From: Azolla caroliniana
Taxonomy: Eukaryota > Plantae > Polypodiophyta
Assembly (NCBI GenBank): GCA_043228905.1
Contig: JBHGNT010000016.1
Span: 9,486,001-9,550,000 of the forward strand
DNA: 64,000 nucleotides
Direction of reading: 5' to 3'
The position numbers were made by a program, and so were the translations under genes. Numbering within the stretch: the first letter of the stretch is position 1; every line of letters starts with the position of its first letter. Positions 8,766 to 45,600 of this stretch are shown here, one piece after another. Below the pieces are notes generated by a model. That model saw nothing but the letters and a program-made list of their open reading frames with translations, did no database searches and was not told the origin of the DNA.

Positions 8766-10242
8766 TGAAAAGTTTAATTTTGGATTTTTAAAAAAAAATA
8801 ATTACATTTTTTTCTATTTTATTTTGGTATTTTGTTTTTTTTCTAAAACAAAATTGAGCTTTAATAAGTGATGAAAAAACCAGAGCTTTTATCACAAGTC
8901 GATACAATCAAATTGATGTTTAAAAAATAAAACAAAATCAATAATTTTTTTTTAAAAATTGACAAAAATTGAAACAAAATTGAAAACAATTAGAAAAAAT
9001 TACTTTAAGCATGAACTCAATACATTATATCGAATTGTGATGAAAAATTATGGTTTTCTAGATGAACTCAAGCACAATTTATTATTATCATTATTTTTTA
9101 AATCCAGTAATAAAAACTTTGAGCAAGAATTCAATACATTGTATGGAATTATGATGAAAACTCTATTTTTTACATCAACTCGATACAACATATCGACTTA
9201 ATGTTTAAAATCTTGTTGTTTTTCAAATAAAAGAGGTTTTTTAAACATGAACTTGAATCGTACTAAAATGTTTGTTTTAACAAGAGAAAAAGATGTATAT
9301 CGATAGTGCAAACAAGTATGTTGTACAACAAGATACTTTATGGTGAACACGTGCATCATTGATTAACAAAAAACTATTAATAATTGTGTTGATGGTAATT
9401 GAACCTTGCAAATGCCATTTACATGGTCCATATAGTGTTCGCGTGGTTCTTAATCACTACTTAATGTTAATCTTTATAGTTGGAACGAAGGATGACAACA
9501 CAAGCATAACTCAGATGAGAAGGAAAATTGCAAGAACTCAAGATGGGGATATTAATAGCTACACATGTAGATGGCCATGACCTAGGGTACCAATTCTGCA
9601 TTGGTAAAGTTTTGGACGTGATGATGTATTAAACCTTTGTAATACATCTATCATTGACATTAATGAGGTGGATATCATTATGTATGACTTTACACAGACA
9701 AAAGTTGGATGTATAAGGACAACAACGATATGCATAATAAAAGAGATATTAGCAAGTCTAGAAGATATCTCATATTGAAGGCGAAGAAGATTTATTGCAC
9801 AAAATTTGGAAATACCATTTGGTGAAGACAATGATTTGATTGGTACATTGGAAGATGAGGAGGAAGAGTCACAATTGTATATTATCTATAATAGTGATTC
9901 TCATGAAAAGAATGATGATAGTCATGCAAATAACTCCCAAATGTATTTATTGTGCAACTATATGTAACAAATTTAGACAACATTTTATCGAATGGAATAA
10001 AAACGTTCATTGTTTTGAAATATTCTACTTTGATTTCTTTAAGATCTAAAAACTTATTAGTTGTCATTTTTCTTTAAAAATCCACAAAGTTACTTTTCAT
10101 ATTTTACCCAAATTTGGCATTTTTCAATTTTACCAAATGGTGAAATTTTCAACTTTTTCATCAAGTTTTGGAGAACATGTGATACTAGTATCAAGACGTT
10201 TTGTGAAATGGCAAAAAAAACCCCAAAATCAAATGGAATATT

Positions 10243-13663: not shown

Positions 13664-16600
13664 ATGGGGGTTCCTAACGAGAGTGAGTTGTCAAGTAACT
13701 CATGCATATCTGAAAGGACTAAGAGACGAGTGGTTCTTCACATAGTCCGTTATTTGGTAGAAATAACGAAGAGATTTAGTGAAGAGGATCGTAGGGATAT
13801 TATCTGTAGAGTGTTACACCATCAAAGTTTGAATGAAGACATGGAGAGAATAAAATTTAGGGACCAATGTGTTTCAGAAGAGATTGTGGAGTCTATGAAG
13901 TCATCCCTAGACTTAGTGAAAGGTGTAGAGAGCTTAGACAAACTAGCTGCAAAGAGGGCAGCCCTACACATGGTTGTGAACGGTGCAAGAGAAAAAAAAT
14001 ATAGTGATACTAAAGTTGCCGAAATATACACTCAAGCAAATTCAAGTGGCTGGGGTTGGGACGTAGACGACGATGTGATGCCTTATCTCAAGAGATTATT
14101 GAGAAAGTGGATTCATTTTGGGCCAACAATACACGTGTCTCACCAAATAAGAAGGACGTGTGTAGACAACGAATAAGTCAGGGTAAGTACCAGATTCACC
14201 CTAGACACTTCTTGGAGATGACAGAGGTATTCCATTTTTTTATATCAATTCACATTCCATAACTTTGTGTTTTGACCAAGTGTATATTAATGTTTGATAT
14301 ATATATTGGTTGATGTAGGCTAAATTGTACATGAACTTTAAAGACCAACATCCAAGCTTGACTGTTGGATTCTGCAAGTTCCAAGGTTTGAAACCATTTT
14401 ATGTTAGAAAATTAAATGAGAGGAATACATGTTGTTGTGTGTACCATGTGAAGATGGACATGTTAAGGCTAGCAGTGAATGCAATGCGTACTGATTCTAA
14501 GGGTATACACGGGGAATTATGTGTCTGCACTTGTGAGATTTGTAGACCAAATGGGGAGGATAATAGGTGTAATGCACGAAACATGACTTATGCATCCGTT
14601 TCTGAGCTATGGAGGTCTTGTGTTTGTGAAAAAGAACCATCATGTGAGTGGCATCGTCGTACATGTCTATTAAGAACATGTAAGGTTTGTCCGCTACCAT
14701 TATTTTGTAGGCAGGAGCTTGATTTGGGAAATAGTCATATCGTGAAATGGAAATATTTGGAGTATGTGACTGAAAATATTGGCAAGGGAGTTGTAACTAA
14801 GCGTATCAAGGAAGTATATAAGGAGACATGTGCTGCTACCCTTGTCTCAGAATTTAAGAAACAACTTGGGGTGTTCATTCCACATAACTTCCGGAGTTAT
14901 TGACAAAATTCACAGTTCAAGGAATGTATTAATAACTTACCAACGGGTGTCATCGTATCCGTTATTGATTTTGCAGAAAACTATGCATTTAAAGTTCAAA
15001 ATGAGGTTCAATCAATGCATTGGTACAATGATCAATGTACAATACTTGTACATATTTGCTATTGGAGGCAAGACGGTGAGTTACATAAGAAATCAATATT
15101 TTACATTTCAGATGATAAAAAGCATGATACACTATTTGTTCAACATTGTTTTAAGCTTCACCATGCAGATTTATTTTCTCTAGGGTTAACCTTTAACCGT
15201 CATTTGGTTTGGTCTGATGGTGCTGCCTCGCAGTTTAAGGCGGCACAATCGTTCTACTTTATCGCCAGGTAATTTTTAATCCATATGTTTAGTACTTATC
15301 ATGCAATGTGTAAGGAAGTAATTCTTGTGTTAGTGGATGCATACTAATTATGTTTGTAACTATTAACAAACAGTACTATTCACATGAATGCATATTAATT
15401 ATGTTTGTAACTATTCGAATCTTGCACTTGTGAATGGATGCATGCATACTAATTTTGTTTGTACTAAATCTGTACTAAATCAGTATTTACTGAAGGATGT
15501 AAAGTACTCGTATTGTACTCTATAGTATTGTCCGTCCTTAAGAGAATTGTACTAAGTAACTTCTAATCCATGTGAAGTGTTCTCCATAGACACAGTGTAC
15601 TATGTTGTGTTTACAAAAGGATGTAAAGTACTCATCTTGTACTCATAGTATTGTCCGTCCTTAAGAGAATTGTACTAATTATCTTTTTATCCATGTGAAG
15701 TGTTCTCCATAGACACATTGTACTATGTTGTGTGTTGTATCTGTACTATGTTGTGTGTATAGAAGGATGTAAAGTACTCATATTGTACTCAGAGTATTGT
15801 TCGTGCTTAAGAGAATTGTACTAAGTATCGATTAATCCATGTGAAGGGTTCTCCATAGACACATTGTAGTATGTTGTGTGTTGGTTCTGTACTATGTTGT
15901 GTTTACAAAAGGATGTAAAGTACTCATCTTGTACTTATAGTATTGTCCTTCCTTAAGAGAATTGTACTAATTATGTTTTAATCCATGTGAAGGGTTCTCC
16001 AAAGACACATTGTACTATGTTGTGTGTTGTATCTGTACTATGTTGTGTGTATAGAAGGATGTAAAGTACTCATATTGTACTCAGAGTATTGTCCGTGCTT
16101 AAGAGAATTGTACTAAGTATCGATTAATCCATGTGAAGGGTTCTCCATAGACACATTGTACTATGTTGTGTTTACAAAAGGATGTAAAGTACTCATCTTG
16201 TACTTATAGTATTGTCCGTCCTTAAGAGAATTGTACTAAATCAGTATTTAATCATGTTGTACTCAATAGTATTGTACTCATCTTTTAAACACACTGTGTG
16301 GTACTGATTATCTATTAATCAATGTTCAGCGTTCTCCATGAACACATTGTATTGTACTATGTGTTGTATCTATACTAAATCAGTGTTTATTGGGGGATGT
16401 AAAGTACATGTCTTGTAGTACTAATGATCTTCTAAGGAGGGTTGTGTTCTCCGTGGACACATTGTACTGTACTATCCGATATTGAACATTTTGTACTATT
16501 TATCTGTTAATACATGTAGAGTGCTTTCCATGAACTCATTGTACTATACTTTGTGCTATATCCATACTAAGTTAGTATTAAATGGATGCCAGGTACTGTT

Positions 16601-18757: not shown

Positions 18758-21700
18758 TCAGGCACTAGAGGGTAACTTGGCCGATCTTGTAATGCGCTTG
18801 TTGTTGGTGCCAGATTTTTCTGATTTTACATTCTTCTTTATCTTAAAGCCTTTAGGTATGAGCTGACTAAGTGGCACTTCATCATCAGAGGCATCAGAGA
18901 CAGGCGTGGATGCGCGGGCACCTTGTACTGGTGTCAAGCTTGAGAGAGCAACTATGTTTTCTGCAACTGCAATGCTTGTACACAAATCCACAAAGGTGCT
19001 GTTGATAGACAAATTATCACTCACCTCCTGAATGCTTGTACTCCTAGCGATCTTTATTGCCCTATCATCATCACCGATGCCTATACACTCGTTCTTATTA
19101 GACTCCTGTATGTGGACCGTGACAGTAGTCATGGTCAACTCCTATTATACGGTGGATGTCACCTCATTCTTAAGACAACGTGTACCTACTTGGGTGGTCG
19201 TTATTGCCTGGTCCTCTTGGGTGATGCTAGTATGCTCGCTTTGAGTACAATCAGGCCCCCTTCATTAGTAACGTTGTTCGCTCTACACTCCTCATGGGAT
19301 TCTGTACAATCAGGCTTATCTTCAGGGGAATCTTTAGACAGTACTAGCACATTATTAGTAGACACTACTAACACATTATCAGTACAACTAGTCTTCTCTT
19401 CAGCACTTGCCACATTATCAATACAATTAGTCTTCTCTTCAGTACTTGCCATATTCTTTCCACACTCTTCATGGGCTTCAATCTTCTCTTCAGTACTTGC
19501 CATATTCTTTCCACACTCCTCATAGGCTTCTTTAGACATACTGTTGTTTGTACATGCCAGCTGCTCTTCACATATGAATGCTTCGTTTTTCTCACAATCC
19601 TCATGTGTGGAAGATGTGCTTCCAGAGTCTGCCTCTGTGCAAAGGTTAATTTGATTCTGACTCTGACTAGAATCTGACTCTACACTTGTGCTCCATGAAG
19701 TTCCCGATTCATTTGATTGCAGTTGGGAATCACATTGCTCTTGTAAACCTAATTAATGGGATTCCAAAGAATATTAGTATCAACTCACATACTCAAAAGT
19801 TTGCAAACAATGAACATAGGGTTTGGGGCCACATTTTTACCTAATGTTACATCGTCATACTGTATAGCGCTTAGATACCCCATTGCAAGTGGTGGGCTCG
19901 GTCATCTTCTCCACAACATCTAGGTGCTCAACAGTGTTGTTATGATCTATAATAGCAACAAAAATAGGGTTGTTATGAGCTAAATCATTGTTTTCAAAGT
20001 CTGGCTTTTGACGTGTACCTGGGAGTGTGATAAATTCGTCTTCACGATCAGGTTTTGGACTCGTATCTCCGTCACCAAATATCATTTCGTCATCAACTAG
20101 TAACACAAGTACATGGTATTATACAATGGATTAGGTTGACAATGCTCCGGACAGGTGAGAACTTATATGACTCACCATTGCATTCAACTTTGCCTTTCTT
20201 TCCATCTCCATACAACATTCTTGCAGCATTTCTCTTCTTACTGGGCTCTATTTGTAAAGAAACTGCATTTCTCTTCTTAGTGGGCTCTATTTCTTGATGT
20301 TGACCGGAGCTTGGGGAATTTGTTTGTAGAAGCATATGTTCCACTACTCCAATGGCCCTTCTCATACATTCATCCTCATCATAAAAATCATAGGTTATTG
20401 GTAATGATGGTCCCTGAACCTTGGAATGTGCAGCAGATATTGAGGGTTTAGGCACAGGGCCTGGTTGTTCCATTACCTTCCCTGGCGTGGAGTTGCTTGA
20501 CACTACAAGATTTATTGCAAGAAACAAAAAAACCTTGAATGTTAGTACCATCATCTAAAATATATAATGTAGGTCACAAGAGCTGCTTCCCATATTACAC
20601 AATGTACCAATCATGAACAATGTACTACTCACATAGTTCCTAAATTACTGAACTAGTACTAATAAGGAACACTGTACTACTCACTTAGTTCCCAATTTAC
20701 ACAAGTAGTACTAATCATGCACAATATACACAAGTAGTACTAATCATGCACAATATACTACTCACTTAGTTACCAAATTACACAAGGAGTACTAATCCCG
20801 AACAATGTACCACTGACTTAGTCAAATTAAAAAGTAGTACTAATCTTGAATAATGTACTACTCACTTGTTTCCTAAATTACTGAACTAGTACTAATAAGG
20901 AACAATGAACTGCTCACTTAGTTCCCAATATACACGATTTGTACTAATCATGCACAATATACACAAGTAGTACTAATCATGCACAATATACTACTCACTT
21001 AGTTACCAAATTACACAAGTACTAATCCCGAAAAATGTACCACTGACTTAGTCAAATTAATAAGTAGTACTAATCTTGAACAATGTACTACTCACTTATT
21101 TCCTAAATCACTACACTAGTACTAATAAGGAACAATGTACTGCTCACTTAGTTCCCAATTTACACAAGTAGTACTAATCATGCACAATATACTCCTCACT
21201 TAGTTACCAAATTACACAAGGAGTACTAATCCCGAACAATGTACTGCTCACTTAGTTCCCAATTTACAAAAGTAGTACTAATCATGCACAATATACTACT
21301 CACTTAGTTACCAAATTACACAAGGAGTACTAATCCCGAACAATGTAATGCTCTCTTAGTTCCCAATTTACACAAGTAGTACTAATCATGCACAATATAC
21401 TACTCACTTAGTTACCAAATTACACAAGGAGTACTAATCCCGAACAATGTACCACTAACTTAGTCAAATTACACAATTAGTACTAATCCTGAACAATGTA
21501 CTACTCAACAATGTACCACTGACTTAGTCAAATTACACAATTAGTACTAATCCTACAAAATGTACTACTCACTTATTTTCTAGATTACTAATCTAGTACT
21601 GATAAGGTACAAAACTAGTACTAATAAGGAACAAAGTACTACTCAGTTCCCAAATTACAAAACTAGTATTAATCATGAGCAATGTACTTGTAACTTAGTT

Positions 21701-23494
21701 CACAAAGTACAGAACTAGTACTAATCATGAACCATTTAGTACTTACTAAGTACTAATCCAACAAATGTAGATTCGTATTTTGCACACAAGTAATACTAAA
21801 CGTGATATGTGTTCTACACACCTAGTTACATAACTTGTACTAATTACACCAACAGTATTAATCTTGAACAGTATTAGTACTAAACGTGATATGTGTTTGA
21901 CACACCTCATTTCCAAATTACAAAAACTGTACTATTATTCAGCAATTTACTATACACCTTGTTCCCAAATTACCTTACTAGTACTAATTCCCAAGTTACA
22001 CAAACAATACTAACAGTCAACAGTGTACTATAAGTATAGTGTTTACTAAACTGAATATTAGGCAAGTTGCAATATAGATTGGACGATGTTGTACCTGGTT
22101 CCCTTTTAGTACTACTAGTTCTAGTCCAAATGTTAATTGACATCATATAATACAAACAATAGAATAGTAGAGCCACATACCGTACAAGTGTACTTTTAAA
22201 CCCCAAGCATAGTACCACTCAGCCGCAATTGTAGTTTTACAGTCCATACATGTATTCTCTTTCTCAAAATGATACTTAGCACATAGCACATGATATGTGT
22301 GCAAGCATGGTGTAATCACAACATCCATAGCCTCCAGCTTGAATCCGAGGCCACAAAATATACACCTAGAAGATTGCAAACACAAGTTATAATATATTAG
22401 TTGCTCACTTATTTATACCAGAGAAGTAGAAATAAATAACTTTTAAAGCCAATACCGTGATATAGCTATACTAGTAATGGTACTTTCTATACCACTTGGG
22501 TGCTCAATTACAGATGGACACAAAGTATCAAAACCATTTTGTTTTAAATCCTGCATCAAGCATGCAAGGTTCTCAGAATGCAACTTTAAGGCTGACAACT
22601 TATTATCTATTTCTTCATGTGCATTCCTGCAAGTATCAAGGTCTCTCATCTGTGAACCTAATTGAGTGCCCATATTGTTCAGCTCTTTCTTCAACTCCTC
22701 TTTCAACACCTCACTTTCTGAATTTTGGATTGTCGATGCAATCCATTCATATGTAGTTTTTATTGAAGAAAATTTCTTTTCTGCCTGTATCTCAGCTGAT
22801 TTAACTGCTTCCAAATCAGCAAGTAGTGCTTGTATTCTTGAGCTCATAGAAGCTATGCAACCGGCCATCATCTGTTCATGCTTTTCAGTCATTGTGGCCC
22901 GTACCTTTGCCTCTAGAACTTGGTGGACAGGTGTTGTAGCTGGAATATCCACATGAGAGGTTCCAGATGACTTCAAGCCAGTGTTGGTACTCGAGGACCC
23001 TTTGTAATGTTCTGACCGGTGACGATTAAAATCTTCCCAATTTACGTCAATGCCACCTTGAACTTCACATGCAAAAGCACGTGCAAAAACAGTACCCACC
23101 TCATTGTTAGTGATTTGATTTGTATCATAAACATGTTCGTATCTCGTCTTCAATAAATTCATGTATTCCCTCTTCAAACCACTTATGTGGAATCCTCGCC
23201 TTGTGTCGGGATGTGCTGACCCCCAGGTTTTTAACAACCACTCTCTCAGCTCTGGATAAACGTCAGGTCGTGCTCGAAGGAAATAATTCCATCCAAGAGG
23301 TGTGTCTCGACTGATGGAGTGGTACATCTTCTTTCTCTGTGTTGATGAATTCATCACCCTTTCTCTTGTGGGTGTCCTTCTTCCTTCCTTCACCGGTGTC
23401 TTCACTTTCTCTTTCATCAATGTCTTCTTTATGGGCGTCCTTCTCGTCATTGTCCTAGTCAACTCAATTCTCAGGGAATGAATATGCATGTACT
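18758..23494 (-). CDS. multi-exon accessory gene: globular domain, coiled coil, RING-H2 finger, long disordered tail (putative E3 ligase; may be partly decayed; upstream exons possible to ~24540)
   Basis: ORF 22443-23489 splices in phase (TCACG|GTATT...TTCTAG|GTGT) into CIFC...PCLHTYHVLC...CMDC (C3H2C3). The donor G|GTATGT at ~22181 joins in phase to the acceptor TTGTAG|TGTCA at ~20503. Downstream exon joins are less certain. Confidence 0.7.
20600..21970. repeat. AGTACT-rich ~57-bp tandem repeats in the RING-gene intron
   Basis: Repeated AGTACTAATC...ACAATRTACTACTCACTTAGTT.CCAAATTACACAAG. Confidence 0.9.
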
Positions 23495-26181: not shown

Positions 26182-26577
26182 TGTATTAACTCTTAGGGCC
26201 GGACAATGGCCTAACACAGGGTGTCTACGGAAGACACTTCACCAAAGGGGTGTTACGACAAGAGGATTAGGCTCAACGATTAATCCAACTTAATTAGGTT
26301 ACTTAGCAAGATCGTCCTTAATAATCACACGCGTAAGATATAACAATGAATGCAGAACGACAATTAACACAGAGAGATAAAAGCACTAAGCTTCATTAAC
26401 TATCCGCTCCAAATTACATTGTATCCGGGCCTTTAAATAGGTTTCCAGTTTGTAGTACAAAATGGTGCCATCCGCACCTGTTTAGGATCGGTCTGGATCC
26501 GGAATGGCATACCGATTCCGGTCCGTCCATCCACACTAATAGCTCACTTACAACCATTCCTTAATAATTAAATAACA
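26182..26577 (-). repeat. 3' LTR of a gypsy element of the dual-PBS lineage (family A)
   Basis: Minus strand starts TGTTATTT 2 nt after the tRNA-Arg-like site; TATA-like TATTTAAAG on the minus strand; left end approximate. Confidence 0.65.
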
Positions 26578-26579
26578 CA

Positions 26580-26620
26580 TGGCACGCCTGTGGGACAGTA
26601 CCTTGTACGTCGAATCCACC
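26580..26620 (-). other. tRNA-Arg 3'-end copy (inverted PBS) in the PPT position
   Basis: Minus strand reads GGTGGATTCGA-CGTACAAGGTACT-GTCCCACAGGCGTGCCA-TG-LTR. Confidence 0.8.
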
Positions 26621-30350: not shown

Positions 30351-30814
30351 GTACGTGGCGGAGGTCAGGGTGAGAGAGGAATTGCTCGGCAATCCGATTC
30401 ATGCCCAAAATGATTGGTTAGCCGTAAAACCCCGATTGTAATCCGAGAAGTTATTATTTAGAAATGCGGTTAAGACACAAACCAGATTTGACCCAAAACT
30501 AGATGTTTATTACGTAATACGGGATAGTGATTACGCGGTGCACAACGGAAAATTACAACAGAAATTATGAGCAGATATTCTACGTTCCTGAGTACTCTAT
30601 TCTAACTAGGGCCTACTCTTCTCTCTTCTGTCCTCTTCCCCTTGTTACATTTCTACTTAACGTTTTATAGTTTGCTTTCCTGCTCTTCACTCGTTTTGGT
30701 TCCATGTTTGATGGTTGCATTATCTTCGCTAACTTCCATCTTACGGTTGCTTACTTAACCTACATCTAGATTCGTTTCATAGCCAAATTACCAATCTATC
30801 CCACAGACAACACT

Positions 30815-30856
30815 TGGCACGCCCGTGGGACAGTGCCTTTGCACATCGAACCCACC
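30815..30856 (-). other. tRNA-Arg 3'-end copy (inverted PBS) in the PPT position
   Basis: Minus strand reads GGTGGGTTCGA-TGTGCAAAGGCACT-GTCCCACGGGCGTGCCA-AG-LTR. Confidence 0.82.
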
Positions 30857-31616
30857 ATAATAAATAAAAAAGATTCGCAAAATTGTTATAATACAGTGAT
30901 TCCTCGGTCAAAATGTCGAAGATGCCTTCGGAGGTCGTGGTGCACAGTTGGTTCCTCCGTCGTAGCCGCCGAGATAGCAGGTTACGACTCATTCTGTGGG
31001 GTCTGCTCGGCCAAGAAATAAAGCTCGTCAGCGATATTTGTCCTCATTGTTGGTAGGGGTGGGGCTTCCTCTTCGTGGTCATGTTGCCATGCCGTTTCTG
31101 TGAAGGCCCTTTTGGTTTTAAGAATCAACAACAATTGGTTGTCATTGAATACCTCAAGGAGGCTTTTGATTCCCGTGGTGTGCATTTTTGCCAAGGCTTG
31201 GAAGTTCTTGGTGAGGTCTTCTTGGACCATTTGTATGCTATTTTCTTCCATTTTATAAAACCCTTGGCCTTCTCTCTTCCGATTTTCGGTGTCAGCCCGT
31301 AAAACCTAGAGTTCAGCTGGTTGAGCCAACCATTCCTTCCAGCCATTGGTGAGAGTTTCTTTGACCTTCAGGTTAAGCTTCTGCCATTGTTTCACCACCA
31401 AGGCGTGGATTCGTTCCTCACGCATGTCGTATTTGGCTTGGAGGTTGATCCTTTCTTTTTTAGCTTCTTCTGCCTCACGCTACAGTTTGACTTTAATGAA
31501 CTCACATGACGTGTTGACGGTGGCGATCTGTGCTGTCTGCGAATTCCTTCAAATACATCTTGCATTGCCTTTCGAGTTCCAACGCTGAGTTCATTTGATG
31601 TTCGTGATGGGAGTCC

Positions 31617-34600
31617 TGTTGAGAGACAAGCTCAACATTGGCCGGATCGGTTGGGACCGATCAGTTAGGCCGAGTGCGTAAACCGGGAGGCCGTTAGGAA
31701 AGATATTCCGTGAGGAATATATTTGGGAGTTAGTGTAGAAGCTCTTAAAGAGCATTGAAGTACGGTCAGTACTTCGGTCAGTCCTTCGAGGACTTGTATA
31801 AAAGTGTTCATGGAACACACATATGTATAGAGTAGTGAATCGAGATCTTTTGTTGAATATAGTTCTTGTGTTTTCTCTCTCTCACTCTCTCTGTCTCTCC
31901 CGTGTATACTGTGTAAGCTCAAGCTCTCCATTAAACCTGAGTTTTCTTCCTTCTGTTCGGTCTTCATACTTGCTTTCGCACGTTACTTTTTACATGGTAT
32001 CAAAGCGCGAGGGTTGAGAACCTCTCTGCAGCCGACAGAGCTTGACGAAGAAGAACAAGAAGAACGATGGATAGAGGCATGGCGAGCTCGCTTCCAACAG
32101 AGAAGCTTGACAGAACCAACTACGCGTCTTGGTCTTACAAGATGCACCAGTACCTACTCGGGCACGACTACTAGAGTTATGTCGAAGGAACTAATGATGC
32201 GGCACCCGAATCGACACACAGAGACTTTCCGTCATGGGAGCAATCGGCGAGCAGGGTATTATACTACTTCGCGTCGTGTGTGGGCGAACAACTATTGAGC
32301 TATGTTCGGGATGCAAAGACGCCGAAGGGTGCGTGGGAAAATCTGAAGAAGATCTTCACCGCGAGCACCACAGCCAGGAAGCTTCAGCTCCGATAGGAGT
32401 TGAGCAACCTACGACAACGCGACTTGTCGGTGGCGGACTATACCTCGAAGATCAACGATATCTGCAACTCCCTCGCCTCTATAGAGGTGAACATCGAGGA
32501 GAGCGAGATGGTCCAGATCTATCTCGGAGGTTTGGCGTCCAAGTTCGGAGCGTTCCGGATGGCTGTGTGTACCCGGGAGAATACGTCGTCCTTTTTCGAC
32601 TTACAGTCAATGCTCCTGGTAGAGGAGAACCACGCGGGTGCGTCTACAAGCACGCACACCGACAACAGAATGCTATACACGGAGGGAGATAGGCCCCGTG
32701 GACGTGGAGGACGAGGCGAGTCGGCGCGCAATGGAGGCGGCCGACGAGATCAAGGAAGAAGGCACCGAAGTGATGCCGACAGCAACTCCGGACCCTCCGG
32801 AAACAGGGGGAGTCGAAGCGATGAGAACCGGCAAGGGAAGGCCATCGCGGAGTGCTGGTACTGTGGCAAGAAATGCCACAGGGAAAGTGAGTGCTGGAAG
32901 AAGCGCGCTGATTCGGAGAGAACCGGTTCCGGAAACGGCTCCGGACATACCGACAAGGGAAATCGGCAGCGATCACACTACGCCAAAGACTCCGAGAGAG
33001 CCAGAGAAGGGTCTGCCTTCGTGACGAGACACGAAGCAAACTCAATGAAACGGATCACCCGGAGATAGAACGAGGTGTGGTACGTAGACTCCGGCGCGTC
33101 AAACCACATGACGAGCCATAAGGAGTGGTTCTCGTACCTTGAAAAACCGATACAACCTGGAGTAGTCGCAACTGGAGACGACACTCCGCATCCGATCGCG
33201 AATGTCGGAGAAGTTCCCCTTAGCCATGTCGGGCAGAAAGGGAAACTCATGAACGTGTTCCGACAATCACGAAGAACTTGGTCTCGGTCGGACAGATCGT
33301 CGACCAAGGGATGGAGGTTCAGTTTACACACCTCGGGTGCTTCATTGAGGAAGAAGGCCGTGTGATTGCGTAAGGGCGCAGAGACGGGAGGATGTTCATC
33401 CTCGACTCCACTGATGGCGGCACCGCAATGTTCGCGAAGGGAAGAAAAACCGAGTCGGACATCGACTTGTGGCACAAGCGGATAGGCCACATCAATTACC
33501 AGCGGCTTAAAGATCTGCAATGGAAACAGGTAGTGTTCGGATTGCCCAAATTTAGTGGCCGAAAGGCACAAATTTGTGAAGCCTGCCAGCTCGGGAAGCA
33601 ACACCGACTTCCTTTCCCCAACGAGCAAAACCGGAGCCGGAATAAGCTCGACCTTATACACTCTGATGTATGGAGGCTGGCACAAAACGTTAATCTTGGC
33701 GGGAGCCGATATTTCGTCTCCTTCATCGACGACCACACGCGGCACACGTGGGTCTACCTCATTGAGAGGAAGAGCGAAGTCTTCGACTGTTTCCGGGACC
33801 TCAAAGGGTTCGTGGAAACGGAAACGGGACGAAAGATCAAGTGCCTGCGGTCGGATGGCGGGAAAGAGTACTTTTCTGGTCAATTCAACGGTTATCTACA
33901 ACAAATGGGAATTCGGCGCGAATTCAGTTGTAGATACACGCCAGAGCAGAACGGCGTGGCCGAGAGGAAGAATCGGTCAGTTGTGGAAGTGGCACGGGCA
34001 ATGTTGGAGGAGAAGATCTTGCCCAAGTTCTACTGGGCCGAGGCGGTAAGGACGGCGGTATACATCCAGAACCGGATCAGAGACGAAGTGTCGGCGCACG
34101 AGCTGTATTTCGGAATGAAGCCGAACTTGCGACACTTGAGGGTGTTCGGTAACATTGCGTATGTGCATGTACCGAAGGAGAAAAGGAGGAAGCTGGACGC
34201 AAAGGCCGAGAAATGCATCTTGGTCGGTTACTCTGACGAGCAAAAGGGTTATAAGTGCTATAACCCTCGCACCAAACAAGCGCGTGTTAGCCGCGACGTT
34301 GTGTTTGACGAGTCCGCATCCTGGTACCAGCCCCCGACTCTGAACCCCAACTCTAATCCGAGCTCTGATGATGAGGTCAGCGAGGCCGAGATGCCTCCGG
34401 ATGAGCCCGAAATCGAGACCCGCAAAGAGAGTCCGATTTCACTCCGTTTAAGTGGACCGATTGGATGACTGAGTCGGTACGACCAGTCCGATGAAGAGCC
34501 GGCGAGTAGTGGAGACTCGGCCGTGCATTCCCCGCAGAGGAAGCCGAGGAGACGGCTTACGCGCAAAGAGAAAGGGAAGAAGAAGGTGTCGTATTCCGGC

Positions 34601-37303
34601 ACGGATAGAAACGAGTCAGACCGACGCGAGTCCGACTCCGAGGGAACCGGTGACAGGTCTTTAAAGGTGAAGACCGTGTCGACCGAGAAGGCCTCGACAT
34701 CGGCTAATGTGAGATTACGCCGATCTACCCGCTAGAAGAATCCTGTTTTGCGGTTCGGATACAACGAGTACATGGCGCATCATTATGCGTACATGACCCG
34801 TGTAGCGGAAGTGCGTGAGCCGGAGAGCTACGCAGAAGTGGCTAAAGACGCGAATTGGCGTGCCGCGATGGAGGAAGAGATGCACACATTGGCGGAGAAC
34901 GAGACCTGGGACCTGGTTGACGCACCAAGAGGGGTAAAACCGATTGGGTGTAGGTGGGTGTACAAGGCCAAGTACAACACCGATGGCTCGGTCAACCGGT
35001 ACAAGGCTCGGCTAGTGGCAAAGGGCTACGCGCAAAAACACGGCATCGACTACGATGAAACGTTTGCGCCGGTCGCGAAAATGACGATCGTCCGTGTTTT
35101 GCTCGCATTAGCTGCGGTGAAGGGGTGGCACTTACATCAGATGGATGTAAAGAATGCGTTCCGGCAAGGTGACCTTGAGGAACAGGTGTACATGGTACAG
35201 CCCCCCAGATTTCATTCTGGAACGAACTCCTTGGCAGTATGCCGACTGAAGAAGTCCCTTTACGGACTGAAGCAAGCCCCGTGTGCCTGGAACGCGAAGA
35301 TCACGCAACAACTGCGTCGGATGGGCTTCGTCACGTCAAAATCGGACTCTTCCCTGTTCATCCGGAAAGGTCGACTCGGACCGGTTAGTATTTTACTATA
35401 TGTTGATGACTTAGTCATCACCGGCGCCGACCTATGTGAAATCGACCGCGTGAAGCTCCAGCTTGCGGCATCGTTCGACATGAAGGATTTGGGGGACCTT
35501 CATTACTTCCTCGTGATCGAAGTGATCCGTACCCCCGAAGGCATATTGATCAGCCAACGTCACTACGTGCTAAGTATGCTCTTCAAATTTGGGATGGCCG
35601 ACTGTAAGTCAGTCTCGACTCCTCTAGACAGAACCCGTCAAGCTTCTTCCCGATACGGGGACGGTATGCGACCCGAAGAGGTACCGACAAATTGTCGGAA
35701 GCCTCATATACTTGACCATCACCCGACTCGACCTCAGTTATCCGGTCGGAGTGATCAGTCAGTTCATGGCACGACCTACCGAGGAGCACCTTCAGTGTGC
35801 GCAATGCATACTTCGGTATGTCAACGGCACTAAGGACCGGGGACTACCATATCGGACCAGTGCAGCCGCGCAGTAAGTCGGCTACACCGATGTTGATTGG
35901 GTTGGCAACGCCGCCGATCGCCGATCCACGTCCGGATACGCGTTCTCCCTCGGGAGTGTCGCGATCGCGTGGCGCAGTAAGAAGCAGCCGACAGTTGCAC
36001 TGTCGAGCACCGAAGCTGAGTACCGAGGAGCGGCTGTCGCGACATGCGAAGCCATATGGTTGAAGCGGCTACTTAAGGACCTGCAAGAGGAGGTGTCAGA
36101 TCCGACGACGATCTACTGCAACAACCTCAGCAGCATCCAGCTCGCGAAAAACCCCGTTTTCCACGCACGGACCAAGCACATTGAGGTGCACTACCATTTC
36201 GTCCGTGAGCGTGTCCTTTCCGGTGATGTCGAACTTCAGTACGTTCCGACGGATCGGAAGACTGCCGACATCTTCACTAAGCCCCTTGGTCTGGACAAGT
36301 TGCGGCAATTCTCTGGTGCGCTCGGATTGCGTCACCTCGACGTGCCAAACTTGAGGGGGAGAACAGTCCCGAATGACCAAGCAAAGCAGCAAGAAAGGAG
36401 CGGAGGTCGCGACACCGAGTCGGTTGACTCGGCTGTTGACTCGGTTGTCGAGTTCGACTTCGGATCGGCTGAAGAAGCCGAGGACGGACCCGCGGAAAAG
36501 TCCGAAAGCGGACAGAAGGGGAGCAGCCGAAGGAGAGAGCCGAAGCCAACCACGCATGGGGAAGATGACGCCACCAAGGGCGAGATGACCGAAGACGAGT
36601 TGGAGACAGCCAACTCACACGAGAGCGAAAACCGATCGGAGGTAGCCGAGTCGGTTCGGATGTTTGATTCAGATACGCTGAATCAACCGAGGCCCAAGCG
36701 GAAGAAAAGGTAGCAGGAGAAGCGTCAACACCGCAACAGCAGAAGAGCTGATAAGGGCCGCATGAGCAGACAAGCCGACCGGAAGGGTCGAAGCGCGCGG
36801 AGTCGAACAGGTCGAGGAGCGCGAGCGAGGCGTGAAGCCAGGAGGAACCGGAGCTGTGAACCCGAGGATCCCGAAGAGCCTCAAGTTGAGCTTGAGGGGG
36901 AGTGTTGAGAGACAAGCTCAACATCGATCGGTCGGCTGAAGAAGCTGAGGACCGGATCGGTTGGGACCGATCGGTTAGGCCGAGTGCGTAAACTGGGAGG
37001 CCGTTAGGAAAGATATTCTGTGAGGAATATATTTGGGAGTTAGTGTAGAAGCTCTTAAAGAGCATTGAAGTATGGTCAATACTTCGGTCAGTCCTTCGAG
37101 GACTTGTATAAAAGTGTTCATGGAACACACATATGTATAGAGTAGTGAATCAAGATCTTTTGTTGAATATAGTTCTTGTGTTTTCTCTCTCTCACTCTCT
37201 CTGTCTCTCCCGCATATACTGTGTAAGCTCAAGCTCTCCATTAAACTTGAGTTTTCTTCCTTCTGTTCGGTCTTCATACTTGCTTCTGCACGTTACTTTT
37301 ACA
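31617..37303 (+). mobile_element. full-length Ty1/copia LTR retrotransposon (5,687 bp), coding region disrupted
   Basis: LTRs 31617-31994 and 36903-37303 (TG...CA); exact TSD AGTCC (31612-31616 / 37304-37308); tRNA-iMet PBS TGGTATCAAAGC 31995-32006; PPT TTGAGGGGGAG 36892-36902. Confidence 0.97.
32067..36713 (+). pseudogene. copia gag-pol (gag, CCHC knuckle, PR, INT, RT, RH, C-terminal extension) with several stops and frameshifts
   Basis: CWYCGKKCHRESEC, WYVDSGASNHM, WHKRIGH...[62 protein letters not shown]. Confidence 0.95.
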
Positions 37304-39679
37304 AGTCCACTAGTTGGCACCGCTCCTGCTCTATTTGGTCCAATATTTGCAGGAACTGACTAGAGCGCACCTGTAATTCCACGAGCTCCTTGTTTAGAGA
37401 TACTATTTGTGCAACCACTATATCTTGTGTAGTCCTGAGGGCGGCTGCAGCATTGTGTTCTGTCTCCTAGAGCTTGGTCGTCTGGTCATGGAGAAGTTTT
37501 TGTAGCTCGGCTTTCCTTTTCGTTGCTTGCTCCTTTATTTTGGCTGCCTCGGCTTTGGCTGTGTCGTAACGTTCCATGGCTGTTTGAACGATAAGTTCTT
37601 CCTTATATCAACAGATAGCATCTTCGAACGGAGCCGTGTTGTGATCGCCCTCAGTTTGGGTTGTTTCACTGTGCATCGCACAGGGGCTGGGTGGTTCTGT
37701 TTGGGTAGATATATCGACCATTGCGACACAACTTCGTAGTTCTGTTTGGGTCGACGCATCGTGTGGGTGGTAGGGGGCAAGCCGAGCAAAGTGAACTCGA
37801 TGTTTGTCTGGAGTCGTGCCTCTAGTCTGGCCAAGCAACGTTCTGATGCTTGCCACAACTCGGTGGCGGTCTTGGCTTGCTTTCATGCTTCTTTGCTGCT
37901 AATGGCCATATCTTTAGCCGCGCGTGTAGTCCTTGCCAGCTCGCGGTAAACCTCGACAAGCGTCATGTTGAGGTTGGGTAGCTCAATGCATGTGTGACGT
38001 TTCTTCGTGGCTCTCTTCCCTCCTACTTTTTATAACTTGGGCTCGTCGTCAGATTCCATTTCGTTGGCCAACGCCCTTTCCACCATCTATTGGTCGCCAT
38101 GTTCTTGGGCCATACGGGCCGCGGCAGCGACTTGGAGGCGGGCAAGGAAATCAATGAGTTCATAAGTCGTGCCGTGTTGTAAAATGGCACCGAGCTCATG
38201 TGATTCGGCTGGTAAGTCCTTGAAGGTCGTTACCTCTTCGTCTGAGAACTGTGATTGTTGCCCTTGTTCAATCTAACCGGTCAGAGCGAGGGGTTTAGCC
38301 GTCACGACTGCGACTGTCTTCTTTGGTACATTGACCAGTTGCTGGTCCTCGGCTGAGGAGTCAGTGGTTGTTCCTTCCTCGCTGTGATGTTGTAGGTGGA
38401 GTTTCTTGGCGGGGTTGAGTTTTGGGCTACAAGTTCGTTGTGATCCCGCTTCTATTGGATCATCGGGGAGTGATCTATACGCATACCGGATTTTCGGTTG
38501 TCTGTTTTCTGCTCTGAGCGTGGAGTGGTTGCAGGTCATGGGGACGTGATACAAATCGTGGAGGATTGAGGTTTGCTGCTCTCCCAAATGGTAATGTTGT
38601 TGGGGGCCTTATGGTTCTTCGACTTGGCTCAAGGCAAGTTGAGGTGTGCGTCGGTGTTTCGTCCTGCCATTCGTCCTGTGGCAACTGCAGGGCTCTTGGT
38701 TTTCTGTCCTAGGTGGGTAGAACTGGTAGGGCCAATGTTTGGCGAGGTGGGGTCATGGTTTGGGGAGTGTAAAGTATGGCCAGATACTATGCAAACACTC
38801 GAAGGAAACACTTACCTTATTGGAAGGAGGCCAATGCGGCACAAATTCCTTCCCCAGTGAGTATACCCCAATCAATAGCTTTGCCTCGATATGCCGTGAT
38901 GATTAAGCGGCGCTCTTCTTGGGTATGCTATATGCATTGGAGGTGATATATCCATACTCCAAAAGAAAATGGGCCAGATTTCCGAAAAATTCATTGGAAC
39001 CTCCATGGTTGGGGCGTGGTGCCCCCGAAATCCTCTGTTCTACCTACCATGGGTTGATTCTAGCTATGTTGTTGTTCGGCGAAGGGGTTTGGTGGTGTCG
39101 GGACGCAGTATGTCTTCAATAGAAATCCATTGAATCAATTCTTCAAGATTTCCCCAGCCAATGTGCCGAGCTCGAACGTTCCGTTGAAATCGTCGACAAT
39201 CTAGAATGGTCCCGTCCACCAAAACCGAAGTTTTACTAGCATTGACCCGAGTCTGTTTTGGAACACAAGGACCAATCTACCGATCTCGAAAGAATTTTCG
39301 GTATCTCAGCGATGGAGATCCACGAAAGCTTTCATTTTTCCTTGGCCTTGTTCTAATTAGTTGAGACTGGCTATTCGTTCTTCCCTAAGTTCGAGTAATT
39401 GTTCTAGCCGTTTGTGTTCGGACACGGATTCGGACGCAGATTTGGACAATCGTTCTATTACTTGCACTCGGACACTTCAAACCTGAAATTCGATCGGCAT
39501 TATGGCTTCGAAGCCGAAAGTCATTCAAAAGGGCGTGGATCTGATGCTTGTCTTGAAAGCGGTGCGGTAGGCCCACAGTGCACTGTGTAATTTATCAACC
39601 CAATCCGTTTGAAGCTCGTTCATGATTTTCTTGAGAATCATCTGTAGGGTCTTATTCGTAGACTCGGCCAATCTATTGG

Positions 39680-42600
39680 TGTTGCCCGTCGGAATAGTAA
39701 CCGACGGAAAAGCGCGTAGGAATAGGAAATAATATAAGATCATAACGCATGTAACGGTTCACGCAGGAAGCATGAACGGCTAAATAGACCCTGCGTATAT
39801 AAAGTGCAGAAAACCTCTGATAGAGGTAGCGTGTATTTTGGAATGTAAGGAAGCGTATCATAATAGAATTCTATCTTCTCTGAAAGTCTGTGTATAGCTA
39901 TGGCTAAACTATTGTGTGTCTGGAATACCTGAGCGTGTAAGAACGTGAGTGTAATTACAGATAAGGTGTCGGTGGTAGCCGTCTCCCTTATACGCTGATA
40001 GGTTACAGGGGAACATTCCCCTACGCATTACGCATATACACCACCATTCGTTGTTCCACAATCACTTGGAGGTCTAGGTCGAAGGACTAACCGTAGACCG
40101 TGTTCCTAATCGGTAACACTTTTGGCACGCCTGGTGATCTGTGTCTTCTCATAGACGAACAACGACGAATGGATGTTTAGCCGTAGACGCCCCAGAGAAC
40201 CAACACGACAAGACCGGCCAATCAGAATGTCCGTCACACGCTAGGTAGACGAACGCGCACGACAAAAGCCTCGCCTCAGCGACCTCAGTACTACCTGTCG
40301 TGATTACAAAGGCTATTCTTTGCTCTCCAAATACCTCAACGATACGCAGCGAGCACGCTTACCTCAGCCACCTTGTGGTCTTTCCCGACCCACAGTAGCC
40401 CCCAACATGGCCTTTGCTTATCCCCGCTTTAACGGCGAAACCGACGCCGCAACCCATATTCAAATATTCCTTAATGTATGGAATGCGAACCACATGGTGC
40501 AGAGGCTTTCGGAGGCGGTAGCGCACCAGTAAAAAATGACGGAGTTCGGGTTAACATTGGATGGGCGAGCGGCGTTTTGGCATTCACAAATGGATTTACC
40601 AGCCCTCACAACCGTTGATCAGCTGCAGTCCGCTTTCTTGTGGTTCCTCGGACAGTTCTACACGATTAAGCAACTACCAACCGAGACGATCGCAGACTTC
40701 AACTTACGTTTCCAAAATTTACGGCAAAAACTAGAACGCAACCCCGCAGAGGACGAGGCTCGAGAGACATTTCTAGCAGCGTTACGCCGACCCATACGGG
40801 CAACGCTCAACAACAATACCATGAAAGGGGAAACAACGGATATGGTCATTGAACGAGCATTACAACTCGAGCTGGACGAGGAGGAGGAAAGGTTTTCTAT
40901 GTCCTCCTTACGACAAGTGTTACCCCAAGACGAGGAATGCTAGTTTCGTCAAGCGATCCAATGCACGATTTGCTTGAATTTGGGGCATTCCGCAGTGGAG
41001 TGCAACATGCAAATCCACTGCCCAATCTACCACTCGAAGGCTCACACAGTCAAACAATGCGAATACAATATGTTGAACAGAGCCACTCCCACAGTTCGCA
41101 GCATGGACACACAACGTCCCCCATGCCATGCTGAACAAAGGAGCCAAGAAGACCGACCACAGTACATGGAGCGCAACCCATGTGACGACCGGCACCACCG
41201 GAATCGCCGAAATAACAACGACTCCGAGGAAGACGAACCAGAGGATGAGGCTTATCGTGGACATTTGAGTTATGCTAAAGGGGGCTGGCGCTATGAGAAT
41301 CACCGGCCGACAAACAAACGTGGTGGCTTCAATGGTTATCGTGGGAAGCCGCGGCAATATCTAGATCACCGGCGTTACGAGGAAAGCTCGGGCGATGAGC
41401 GACACCACGAACCACGACGTGACCAACAGCAACCACCGTCTGCGTTCCGACAACCAAGGCCGAACCGTGAGGAGCAAGTTACACCTGGGGATCGGCACAC
41501 ACCACCACGAGCCGAGAAGGGCAAATCAAGCATCCATTGTCAGCAGCCCGGACATTATGCCATGCAATGCCCAACACGCAAGGGCAAGGGGCCCACCGTC
41601 AATACTATTACGGCGGAAGTACAACAAGTCATGACACGCCAGCAAACAAAAACGACTGATTGGGCTGTGCAAGATGAGATACAACGACAAGCCCAAGCAT
41701 GGGTGGAAAAAGCCAACACGACCAATACAGAGCGCATGCGGAGGGAGTCCGCGAATGCGAGGGAAGGAGTAGCGGATGAAGGACTGGTTCCAGACCCCAT
41801 TTGGCAGGCATTAGCGGGCTATGAAATAACGTTAACCATGGAGAAACTACTGCAGTTAGTCCCACGCTTCCGCCAGACCATGGAAGAACGGGTGACGGGC
41901 ATACCCAGGGTGAGCGTCGCTACAAACCTTACATATGTTAGCGACGGCCCGCCTGTAGTGGATCACCACAACCCGGTTATTACGCTAATATTACACGGAC
42001 AGGAAATTCCTGGATGCGTAATGGATGGCCGCTCATGCATCAATGTAATTAGCGTGAAAACTTGCGAACAGTTAGGCATTTCAGAATGGGAGGCTTGCCC
42101 ATTCTGGCTCCGAATGGCAGATACCCGCTCATTACAACCATTGGGGTTAATTCACAAGATAGGCATTATCGTGGGCGGACATTGTTTCGACATCTTGGCG
42201 GTCTTCCTCGCCTTGGACGCCCCAGGGGTGTACCCAGTGCTTTCTGGGCTGACCATGGCTTTGGGCAGCAAATATCAAGCAAAGCTGGCAACACAAGTGA
42301 ATCAATTTCCGACACGGGCGCACTAAGGTTCGCGTACCTACGAAAGGAAGCACGCCACAACCCAAGGGTATAACACCGTTATACGCAGAAGATATAAATA
42401 TGTTGGTTGGGGTGGAGGGTGCAGAATTAGAGGCATACCTAGATGAGCACCCTCAGATCATTCCGCTATTCGAAATCGACGTCATCGCAACTGCGGCAGA
42501 ATATGCCACGACCACTAGTCTCCACGATGAGGCTTACGAACCAAACCCAGAGTCCATATTGGAACTCAGCAGAGCACGGGAGGCATTCGAAAGGGAAATG

Positions 42601-45600
42601 GAAATTTCACGACGATTCACCGCCTCCGCCTTGGAAGAAGTAAATGTGGGTACGGAGTCGGAACCCCGTTTCCTCTCCATTGCAAAGGAATTAAGGTCGG
42701 ACCAGAGAAACACAATGATCGCACTACTCACGAAATATAAAGATGTGTTCGCTTGGGCTCACGAGGACATGAAGGGGTTACATCCCAAGTTCTATCAGCA
42801 TAAGATCAATTTAGCAACCGATGCGAAACCCGTCCAGCAGTGCCGCTACCGCATGAACCCGAACTACGCGACCCGCGTGAAAGAAGAAATTGACAAGCTC
42901 CTGAAGGCGGGGTTCATACGGCCAGTTAAACAAGCGACATGGTTAAGCCCGATAGTCGTCGTTCCAAAGAAAAACGGTAAAATACGGGTATGCGTAGATT
43001 ACCAAAAATTAAACGTCGTAACCATTATGGACGCATTTCCCTTACCCTTCACCGATAGCGTACTGGACGTCGTCGCAGGACATGAGATGTACAGTTTTTT
43101 AGATGGCTTCAGTGGCTATAACCAGGTATGCATGCATCCCGAGGACCAAGAAAAGACGGCATTTGTCACGGACTAGGGAGTCTATGTGGCAGTCGTCATG
43201 ATGTTCGAGCTTCAGACGGCACCGACAACATTTCAACGGACAATTACGGAGATCTTTGGGGAATACATTCCAGAGATCATGCAAGTTTTTTTAGAGGACT
43301 TTGTGGTATATGGGAGAACAATAGACCATTTTACACACTTACAACTGTGCCTGGAACGTTGCCGCACCGCATGCTTAAGCCTGAATCCCGCAAAATGTGC
43401 TTTCGGCGTGACCAGTGGGACTCTCCTGGGCCATATAGTCAGCAAAGAGGGAATAGTGGTTGATCCGAACAAGATCTCCGCGATTACGCAAGCCAAAACT
43501 CCGACAAACGCCAAATCGCTCAACCATTTTTTAGGACAAATACAGTGGCATAGTCGGATGATACGGTGTTTGGCGGACTTCGCCACGCCGTTACATGCTG
43601 TCGTACATCGGACTCCTTTCCAATGGACTGTAACAGAGGATAAGGCCTATGAGGCACTTAAGATAATGCTCACACAGGCCCCCGTCGTACAACCAGCAGT
43701 TTGGGCGAAGCCATTCCACGTGTTCGTCGATGCCTCGGACATAGCTATAGGAAGTGCACTAATGCAGCTCACCGAACCAAACTAGTACCAGCTAGTGTAG
43801 TATGCTAGTCGCAAATTATCAACAACAGAGCGTAACTATTCCACAACGGAGCGGGAGGCGCTAGGGATGATCTATAGCATCAATAAATTCTGGCATTATT
43901 TACTAGGGAGGAAATTCACGTTCCACGTGGATCATTCGACGCTGCTGTATGTGGTGGAGAAACAAACCCTGACGGGGAAATTGGTGCGGTGGATGTTGCT
44001 GCTCCAAGAATTCGATTTCGTAATCCAGCACTGACCAGGGACGCAACACACAGTGGCGGATTTTTTTAGCAAACTCGAGAATGGAGAAACAGTAAAGAAA
44101 GATGACGCCGATTTTCCGGACGCCGACATCCTGCGGGTAGCAGCACTAGTAGAAAGAACGGAATCGACCTTTCCAGACCGGTGGCTTATGGAAATGACGT
44201 ACTTTTTGACTACGGGACTGCCTCCACCACAATTACGCATGGACGAGAAGAAACGACTAGTGGTCACTTCTGCCTCGTAGAAGGAGTTTTATATCACAAA
44301 GGTAGTGATGGCATTTGGTGACGTGGGGTATGTTAGGACGAGAAGGAAGCAGTTTTACGGGAGGCGCACTACGGCACGACAGGCGGCCATTACGCGGGCG
44401 ACGTTACAGCCCGGAAAATATGGCAGGTGGGCTTATGGTGGACAACAACATAGAAGGACACATCCGAGTATTATAGAAAGTGTGATTTGTGTCAACGGAT
44501 GGGCCAGCCCGCGGAGAGCGCAAGGATGCCACACCAGCCCGTATTATCGTTACACCCCTTCCAAAAGTGGGGATTGGATTTTGTGGGCCCCTTCACACCG
44601 GCGGCAGCCCGTACGGGCAATAAATACATATTGGTAGCTATGGATTATTGCACCAAGTGGGTAGAAGCAAAGGCACTACGTGAAAATATGGCGGCTGTCA
44701 CAGCTAGATTCGTTTACGAGCACATCTGGTGCCGGTTCGGCTGTCCGATTGAGCTCATCAGTAACCAGCGGAGTCACTTTCTCAATACGGTGGTTCGGGA
44801 ACTAACACATCATTACGTCATAGTCCACAAGAAGAGTACGCCATATTATCCACAGGCGAATGGGTTAGCGAAATCTACCAACAAGATGTTGCAGACCATC
44901 TTGAAGAAAATCGTCAATAAAAATAGAACGGACGGGGATACCAAATTACAGAGTGCGTTAAGGGCATACAGAACCAGCTACAAAACAAGCATACAGTCAA
45001 CACCATTTCGGCTAGCGTTTGGGCTGGAGGCTGTGATGCCGGTAGAATTTCAGGTACCCAGTTTGCGGATTCAGGTACAGAACCGACTATTAGAAGCCAA
45101 GTCGAAGGAGGTACGGCTCCACCAACTACTCGAACTCGGGGAAAAACACGTACACAACATGGTTGTGTTGGAGCAGGAACAACGACAGCATAAAGCCTTT
45201 GTGGATTGACATCGGAACGCAAGGGAAAAGGAGTTCCCCGTCGGTCGAGCGGTGCTGGTTTTCCAAACCCACATGGGCCATATGCCAGGGAAGTTACGAT
45301 TCCGCTGGACCGGCCCATATTGGATAATTGGAGCGGAACAAGGCACGTTCCAATTAGGTACACTGGCCGGGGAAGTAGTACGGCAAAAGGTGAATGGGTT
45401 TCGGCTCAAACCTTACCTGGGCCCTACGCCACCTAACCCATTCACCGCCGAACGGGACAGAGCTGGAGAACCCGCAGCATAAAGGGACGGCCCAACTTGT
45501 ACCATAATGTAAAAATAGGTTGTAGATAACCATTACAAAAAAAGAAAGGGGGGGAGAAGATAGCTACTCTTAAAATGACTAAATGCATGCACAGACTCCT

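Follow-up and report, generated by a model that had tools for sequence, protein, structure and literature searches.

Nested retrotransposons and three bipartite tRNA sites in the window

The window (the whole 64-kb stretch of DNA analyzed here) is nested LTR-retrotransposon DNA of plant type and contains, next to three LTRs, short sites that resemble the 3' part of a tRNA-Arg interrupted by a small hairpin (Table 1). When the letters of the window were reread, all three copies claimed in an earlier note on this DNA were present, with the sequences described there. We read the focal copy and the integrase end upstream of it as belonging to one element, which a nested copia element appears to have split. 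This copia element, taken as a control, has an ordinary polypurine tract (PPT) at 36894-36902, the place equivalent to that of the tRNA site, and a primer-binding site (PBS) that we take, from its motif, to be of the Met type. The third copy lies in an internally deleted element whose direct LTRs have TG...CA ends and are 93% identical; a related coding element starts at 39680, and its 3' end was not found within the 64-kb window.

Table 1. Coordinates of the bipartite tRNA sites and of the surrounding elements in the window
Feature	Positions	Strand	Description
Focal copy, whole site	30815-30855	− (tRNA sense)	Stem and loop GTGC-AAAG-GCAC
Focal copy, acceptor half of 3' tRNA site	30815-30831	−	tRNA-Arg positions 59-76 with CCA, lacking one C (65/66)
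Focal copy, 14-nt insert	30832-30845	−	Spacer base, 4-bp stem (30833-30836 with 30841-30844), 4-nt loop, nearly invariant T beside position 59
Focal copy, T-arm half	30846-30855	−	Identical to tRNA-Arg positions 49-58
2-nt spacer from CCA to TG of 3' LTR	30813-30814	−	LTR starts at 30812 on the − strand
Integrase end upstream of focal copy	39072-39683	−	58% to P0123; nested copia element between
Second copy	26580-26619	− (tRNA sense)	Stem and loop GTAC-AAG-GTAC; 2 nt before LTR 26182-26577
Third copy	55558-55598	+ (tRNA sense)	Stem and loop GTGC-CAGG-GCAC; 2 nt before 3' LTR 55601-56038
Internally deleted element with both LTRs	53376-56038	+	5' LTR 53376-53813, 3' LTR 55601-56038, 5-bp target site duplication (TSD), gag on +
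5' PBS for tRNA-Arg of element 53376-56038	53818-53831	+	After the 5' LTR, on the gag strand
5' PBS of related coding element	40123-40136	+	LTR from 39680; gag-PR-RT-RH-INT 40404-45452 on +
Copia element nested in the focal element	31617-37303		Both LTRs 97% identical, 5-bp TSD, normal PPT

The best-scoring named relatives of the gypsy reverse transcriptases (RTs) in the window are liverwort and fern proteins with about 50 to 60% identity, which suggests that the host is a non-seed land plant; one of the query RTs came from a different gypsy family that the window also contains, and its result bears on the host alone. ARAGORN found no tRNA genes in the window, and Rfam gave no matches at 30700-31000. 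Elsewhere, the region at 6800-9420 is AT-rich and MITE-like, bearing long terminal inverted repeats and, in its interior, palindromic repeats of 51 nt, and tandem arrays with units of about 146 nt and about 52 nt lie at 15520-16570 and 20550-22000.

A tRNA-Arg site in the place of the polypurine tract

A full-length tRNA-Arg(UCU) sequence with its CCA was found in locus L005 (L005:1190-1265), where it adjoins an element's extra-ORF tail and is oriented like a 5' PBS, possibly as a plus-strand read-through of the entire primer. Compared with this tRNA, the 3' site consists of positions 49-58, the insert, and then positions 59-76 minus one C (65/66), which confirms against a real tRNA the split between positions 58 and 59 that had been proposed. 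Removal of the insert was also said to restore the tRNA, and it mostly does, although not fully, as the acceptor half has 17 nt instead of 18. The C is missing in all three window copies and in five additional 3' sites recovered by a fuzzy search that permitted an extra base; its absence was forced by the pattern of the metagenome scan described below, and the window copies and fuzzy-search sites are free of that constraint. With no tRNA gene called in the window and the B-box pattern absent in 118 of 118 sites, the site does not qualify as a tRNA gene or pseudogene, which would have a full cloverleaf with an intact T-loop and B-box. The tRNA-Arg(UCU) sequence matches 206 to 332 contigs per run in three sequencing runs that contain the window's element; some of the tRNA-Arg(UCU) contigs in the host runs are tandem fragments.

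In the three window copies, which no search pattern constrained, the CCA ends 2 nt before the TG of the LTR. A PPT adjoining the 3' LTR, given as a feature of most LTR elements in the accessible text of PMC6317226, is absent from all three, and the tRNA site fills its place. The site reads in the tRNA sense on the gag-pol strand, and a separate short 5' PBS is also present. Among the loci fetched from the metagenome collection, all matches to pol, gag, and the extra ORF run in the tRNA-sense direction, with integrase and the extra ORF upstream of the site and gag beyond the LTR in the same sense; a lone pol match beyond an LTR, in L054, belongs to a distant element. TATA-like boxes occur on the tRNA-sense strand of 65 of 76 LTRs and on the opposite strand of 12 of 76. 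On the strands of the element, pairing with the tRNA is possible solely as minus-strand DNA or as antisense RNA. The orientation and position of the site therefore imply that it replaces the PPT and would pair with the tRNA only once it has been copied into minus-strand DNA. The polarity of the genome suggested by these features is supported by the orientation of the tRNA copy in L005, which is PBS-like, and by a sense-oriented host gene capture in L062, where an HSP70 N-terminal fragment (L062:1939-2178, − strand; Pfam E value, 5.6e-14) lies inside a noncoding derivative.

The same locus, L062, holds two related elements tail to tail, and an apparent bipartite 5' PBS there was rejected on that account. 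Short derivatives that lack pol matches retain both sites (L019, L031, L033, and L076). In L019, L031, and L076, tandem units of 2.2 to 2.5 kb without a pol match repeat the LTR and the 5' PBS as well as the 3' site, and these are either tandem arrays or the result of assembly collapse. A PPT-like purine tract is present at 45535-45560 in the window, just past the point where pol stops in the element that begins at 39680; no matching tract follows the integrase of L013, and a search for a conserved internal PPT found none.

Conservation of the site in metagenomic loci

Only the edge of the LTR, the length of the spacer, and the 17-nt acceptor half were specified in the metagenome scan; the hairpin and the T-arm half were left free. 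The scan yielded 122 rows, which correspond to 120 loci from 33 of the collection's 64 parts. After removal of two truncated loci, 118 were analyzed, and these still include two chance matches and one copy broken by a microsatellite. One accession series covers 118 of the 120 loci, so the breadth of hosts is narrow. Clustering of the flanks of the loci at an 80% threshold gives 42 clusters. At least 7 of the 10 bases of the T-arm half are matched in 113 of 118 loci (41 of 42 flank clusters), compared with 14 of 210 control windows. All four Watson-Crick pairs of the stem are formed in 73 of 118 loci, and at least three in 109 of 118, compared with four pairs in 30 of 1,529 shifted controls and 2.4% of shuffles. 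As both the T-arm match and the pairing are far above their controls, the site is not a chance occurrence.

The insert is 13 to 14 nt long in 111 of 116 cases, and 115 of 118 loci retain the T adjacent to position 59. Across 100 unique sites, T54 is retained in 96, T or C at position 55 in 99, C56 in 90, G or A at position 57 in 93, and A58 in 59; the changes include loss of A58 (41 sites), T55C (29 sites), and G53A (20 sites). Upstream of the T-arm half, identity drops to background. The third copy is matched by 1,249 to 2,054 contigs in each of four host-related runs, and the variants listed within its site affect the loop, position 49, and two bases of the acceptor half, with others in the adjoining spacer; none of those listed is in the stem.

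Searches of other collections contributed little. The viral collection gave three and one look-alike matches, which have neither LTR context nor a hairpin, and no relative of pol. Contigs of prokaryote genomes gave nine distant or short gypsy-like pieces, which were not used in the analysis; the gypsy-like pol fragments within bacterial genome records (L125-L133) are probably eukaryotic contamination.

Covariation of the hairpin stem

Covariation was assessed in 49 rows with a 3-nt loop and a 13-nt insert, 46 of which are distinct. In these 46, both inner pairs are intact throughout, with 21 and 22 double changes (counted as sequences, not as evolutionary events), a combination reached by 0 of 500 shuffles, and the real stem pairs in 95% of cases versus 16 to 62% for slid controls. 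At least three stem switches lie on well-supported branches of an LTR tree of 38 representatives, which is itself noisy: a change from T-A to G-C via a half-changed intermediate, a change from T-A to C-G, and a change from G-C to A-T in a clade that includes the second window copy, at 26580. Two further switches are suggested within flank clusters.

The 4-bp stem with a compensatory G-C/A-T pair, first pointed out from three copies, thus covaries, and its A-T form is the fixed state of a clade, which rules out that the A-T pair represents two independent deaminations in a single dead copy. Moreover, changes from T-A to G-C and from T-A to C-G do not arise from cytosine deamination, so the objection that the earlier note had raised against its own reading does not apply. 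Its other concern, that the T-arm half might decay like neutral sequence, was not borne out either, as this half is conserved while the flanks diverge. Stem covariation and the conserved T-arm half together sustain the proposal of a selected site over passive tRNA capture, and, judged from sequence comparison, selection on the site is well supported.

A longer hairpin of 7 bp, extended by GAC/GTC, is broken in 10 and 6 of the 46 rows, and its 3' side was fixed by the scan pattern, as was that of the self-pairing T-stem. Folding energies computed with DNA parameters differ by only about 0.4 kcal/mol, in favor of the hairpin on the minus strand. The hairpin loops are A-rich on the coding strand, as is the whole strand. 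Neither of these two observations was counted as evidence.

Predicted pairing with tRNA-Arg and the role of the insert

When A58 was blocked, cofolding of the site with the tRNA gave a three-way junction in eight of nine examples. For 70 of 89 unique sites (33 of 42 clusters), folding with RNA parameters predicts the bipartite complex, and 19 of 89 fold without it. About 26 of the last 28 tRNA bases are predicted to pair, leaving A58 and one C unpaired. The geometry that had been envisaged, in which the template loops out a hairpin and anneals to about 27 nt of the tRNA, is therefore retained. The reason given for the hairpin, that it bypasses a nonpairing m1A58 (a modification that we presume to be present in the tRNA-Arg of these elements), is not: with A58 blocked, the natural uninterrupted complement binds at about −36 kcal/mol net, versus a median of −19 kcal/mol for the split sites; because RNA parameters stood in for DNA, only the order of these values is meaningful. 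As the uninterrupted complement binds better, the insert carries a penalty and calls for a different explanation, and the missing C, too, weakens tRNA binding in the folding predictions. Shuffling the insert usually costs a few kcal/mol, which indicates that the stem softens the penalty that the insert creates.

The pattern of conservation in the T-arm half bears on what it pairs with. A mimic of the tRNA T-loop should keep A58, U55, and G53. The retention of T54, of T or C at position 55, and of C56 together with a loose A58 fits pairing to a tRNA with a nonpairing A58, unlike a T-loop mimic, although A58 predominates in 32 of 41 clusters. If the T-stem paired with itself, positions 54 to 56 would stay unpaired, which gives no reason for their conservation. 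Shuffled T-arm halves sometimes score as well as the native complex, and the site can self-fold on either strand. Wobble asymmetry at positions 51 to 57 was rejected as a strand test because it is weak, with six of the seven possible transitions being wobble compatible in any case; C56T occurs in eight clusters.

A tRNA as the putative plus-strand primer

We propose that tRNA-Arg pairs with the 3' site on minus-strand DNA, forming a three-way junction, and initiates plus-strand synthesis 2 nt short of the LTR; from the sequences and the folding models, we regard this as the probable function of the site. As in the canonical cycle, a tRNA would first initiate minus-strand synthesis from the 5' PBS. 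After strand transfer and clearing by RNase H, the orientation of the 3' site would make it a tRNA complement on single-stranded DNA, where tRNA positions 59-76 and 49-57 are predicted to anneal to the sequences that flank the 4-bp hairpin, leaving out A58 and one C; RT would then extend from the CCA, as the position of the site suggests. The stem of the insert would hold the two halves adjacent cheaply. The purpose of the insert and of the missing C is not explained by priming alone. Probably, the insert, which breaks the T-loop in genomic RNA and the polymerase III B-box in DNA, keeps these nucleic acids from tRNA-like handling (A58 methylation blocking RT, processing, or TFIIIC), or else it pauses or positions RT and RNase H.

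The 5' PBS matches tRNA-Arg mostly over 10 to 14 nt and retains the base missing from the 3' site. It follows the tRNA further (13 to 14 nt in several clusters) than it follows the 3' site, with which it shares 10 to 11 complementary bases. In 23 of 25 rows, base 10 of the 5' PBS and base 67 of the 3' site are in agreement; since the latter lies in a CpG and has switched between the members of many sister pairs, this agreement reflects few events and is only a hint, one that would fit either a shared tRNA (handed over in cis or from a sister RNA) or direct pairing between the 5' and 3' sites. A single tRNA might even prime both strands, swapping from the 10- to 14-bp 5' PBS to the approximately 26-bp 3' site once the latter has been copied into the same DNA, with RNase H cutting the tRNA-DNA junction and the freed CCA starting the plus strand. 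We offer this extension tentatively and consider it rather doubtful. If true, it would account for the greater length of the 3' site, for the concordance of the two bases, and for a 5' PBS that has not been corrected to 18 nt. Plus-strand transfer of the Ty3 type requires no tRNA copy and passes none on (PMC5371799, in its accessible text), so such a cycle could still close.

Instead of a host tRNA, the element's own RNA might supply the primer: its tRNA-like segment would stay on the minus-strand DNA, RNase H would cut after the CCA by its tRNA-removal specificity, and the hairpin would pause RT 18 nt from the cut. A second tRNA would then be unnecessary, the constant distance from stem to CCA, seen in the T beside position 59, would be explained, as might the missing C, and the sense strand can indeed form a stem-loop at −9 to −17 kcal/mol. 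We nevertheless consider this unlikely, because it leaves the conserved T54, T55/C, and C56, which are unpaired in the self-fold, without explanation, because the loss of A58 and the T55C and G53A changes contradict a T-loop mimic, and because the polymerase-to-RNase H spacing of Ty3 RT is about 13 bp in the accessible text of PMC5371799 and PMC4974528. A role confined to genomic RNA appears improbable as well. The 3' site would there pair with the 5' PBS for circularization or dimerization, like CYC5:CYC3 of Ty1, or recruit the tRNA for packaging, and the plus strand would be primed otherwise. The complementary bases and the agreement of bases 10 and 67 are consistent with such pairing, and contacts of this kind are required in Ty1 and Ty3 (PMC5371799 and PMC4974528, accessible text); however, the 5' PBS tracks the tRNA further than the 3' site, few events underlie the agreement at the flipping CpG, and there is no other primer at the LTR edge, the PPT-like tract near 45535 being unmatched after the integrase of L013.

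We see very little probability that the packaged genome is an antisense RNA on which the 3' site would be an extended minus-strand PBS of the Ty1 type, with the short site serving the second strand. Extended, looped contacts between PBS and tRNA on RNA do have precedent (PMC5371799 and PMC4974528, accessible text), and of the two sites the 3' one is the stronger, but the TATA-like boxes point gag-ward, the HSP70 fragment in L062 lies in the sense of the gag strand, the full tRNA copy in L005 is oriented as a read-through of the 5' PBS, and tRNA priming at both ends would still be needed. Passive capture of a tRNA followed by neutral decay, for which the abundance of tRNA-Arg copies in the host runs might speak, has next to no probability and is effectively refuted by the covarying stem, the conserved T-arm half, the nearly constant insert length, and conservation across 42 flank clusters.

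Relationship to known elements and priming systems

On the basis of their LTRs, 5-bp TSD, domain order, and tRNA-Arg PBS, we assign the elements to the Ty3/gypsy LTR retrotransposons. The RT motifs appear similar to those of the OTA superclade. The order GAG-PR-RT-RH-INT was found, with the protease read from a sequence motif and giving no Pfam match; P0123 and P0125, relatives that are 73% identical to the window RT over a 202-aa query, are single frames of this order in which neither a second RNase H nor a chromodomain was found (Pfam gave one RNase H region). The best solved relatives are Ty3 RT and Gag-Pol, and the acidic residues of the RNase H of one relative align with those of Ty3.

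Judged by a table of features, the elements fit no clade listed in the accessible text of PMC6317226 on all features. They share the domain order, 5-bp TSD, extra ORF, and long 3' region with the plant OTA nonchromovirus Ty3/gypsy elements described there (Athila and Tat/Ogre/Retand) and the tRNA-Arg PBS with Ogre and TatIII. In contrast to Tat (Ogre, Retand, and TatI-III), no archaeal RNase H was detected by Pfam in P0123 and P0125; in contrast to Athila, whose dominant PBSs are for tRNA-Asp, -Asn, or -Ala, the PBS here matches tRNA-Arg(UCU); and Phygy/Selgy differ in having a 4-bp TSD and a tRNA-Trp or tRNA-Ala PBS. What sets the present elements apart from OTA elements is the inverted bipartite tRNA site in place of the PPT, of which the accessible text of PMC6317226 makes no mention.

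The site resembles the bipartite PBS of Ty1 and Ty3 in that acceptor stem and T-arm both pair, with looped-out sequence between them, and differs in that theirs is complementary to the tRNA on genomic RNA, primes the minus strand, and coexists with a PPT, whereas here the site is in the tRNA sense at the position of the PPT (PMC5371799 and PMC4974528, accessible text). As in canonical PPT priming in Ty3 and HIV-1, the 3' end of the primer would lie at the edge of U3, although a host tRNA acting in trans is proposed here in place of a purine fragment of the genome that resists RNase H (PMC5371799, accessible text). Self-priming in Tf1 and Tcn1, which is relevant to priming by the element's own RNA, illustrates that an element RNA structure can replace a standard primer, but there it replaces the minus-strand tRNA and the PPT is kept (bioRxiv 10.1101/2022.12.06.519325 and PMC6317226, accessible text). 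The Ty1 and Ty3 precedent invoked in the earlier note thus stands for the existence of extended contacts, but those serve minus-strand priming on RNA, unlike the present site. In HIV-1, the primer activation signal contacts the primer tRNA.

To our knowledge, plus-strand priming from a PPT is treated as near-universal in LTR retrotransposons and retroviruses. No description of a tRNA site in place of the PPT was found in full-text literature searches covering few subscription journals or in a literature search with the sequence string of the site. A high-copy plant clade that apparently uses a tRNA would show a second way in which RT and RNase H define the left end of the cDNA, and the size of the site, 40 nt, makes it testable with oligonucleotides. 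Such elements can be missed or inverted by annotation software for which a PPT is mandatory or in which the strongest PBS decides the orientation.

Some variation was also seen at the primer sites themselves. The sister elements of the window differ at base 9 of the 5' PBS (53818-53831 versus 40123-40136), and a G-to-A variant at 55590 reaches about 10% of depth. Loose ends in tRNA-Arg contigs, compared over a short stretch with no variant rows, hint at acceptor-stem variants, and, together with the variant at 55590, they hint that PBS variants track tRNA-Arg isodecoders.
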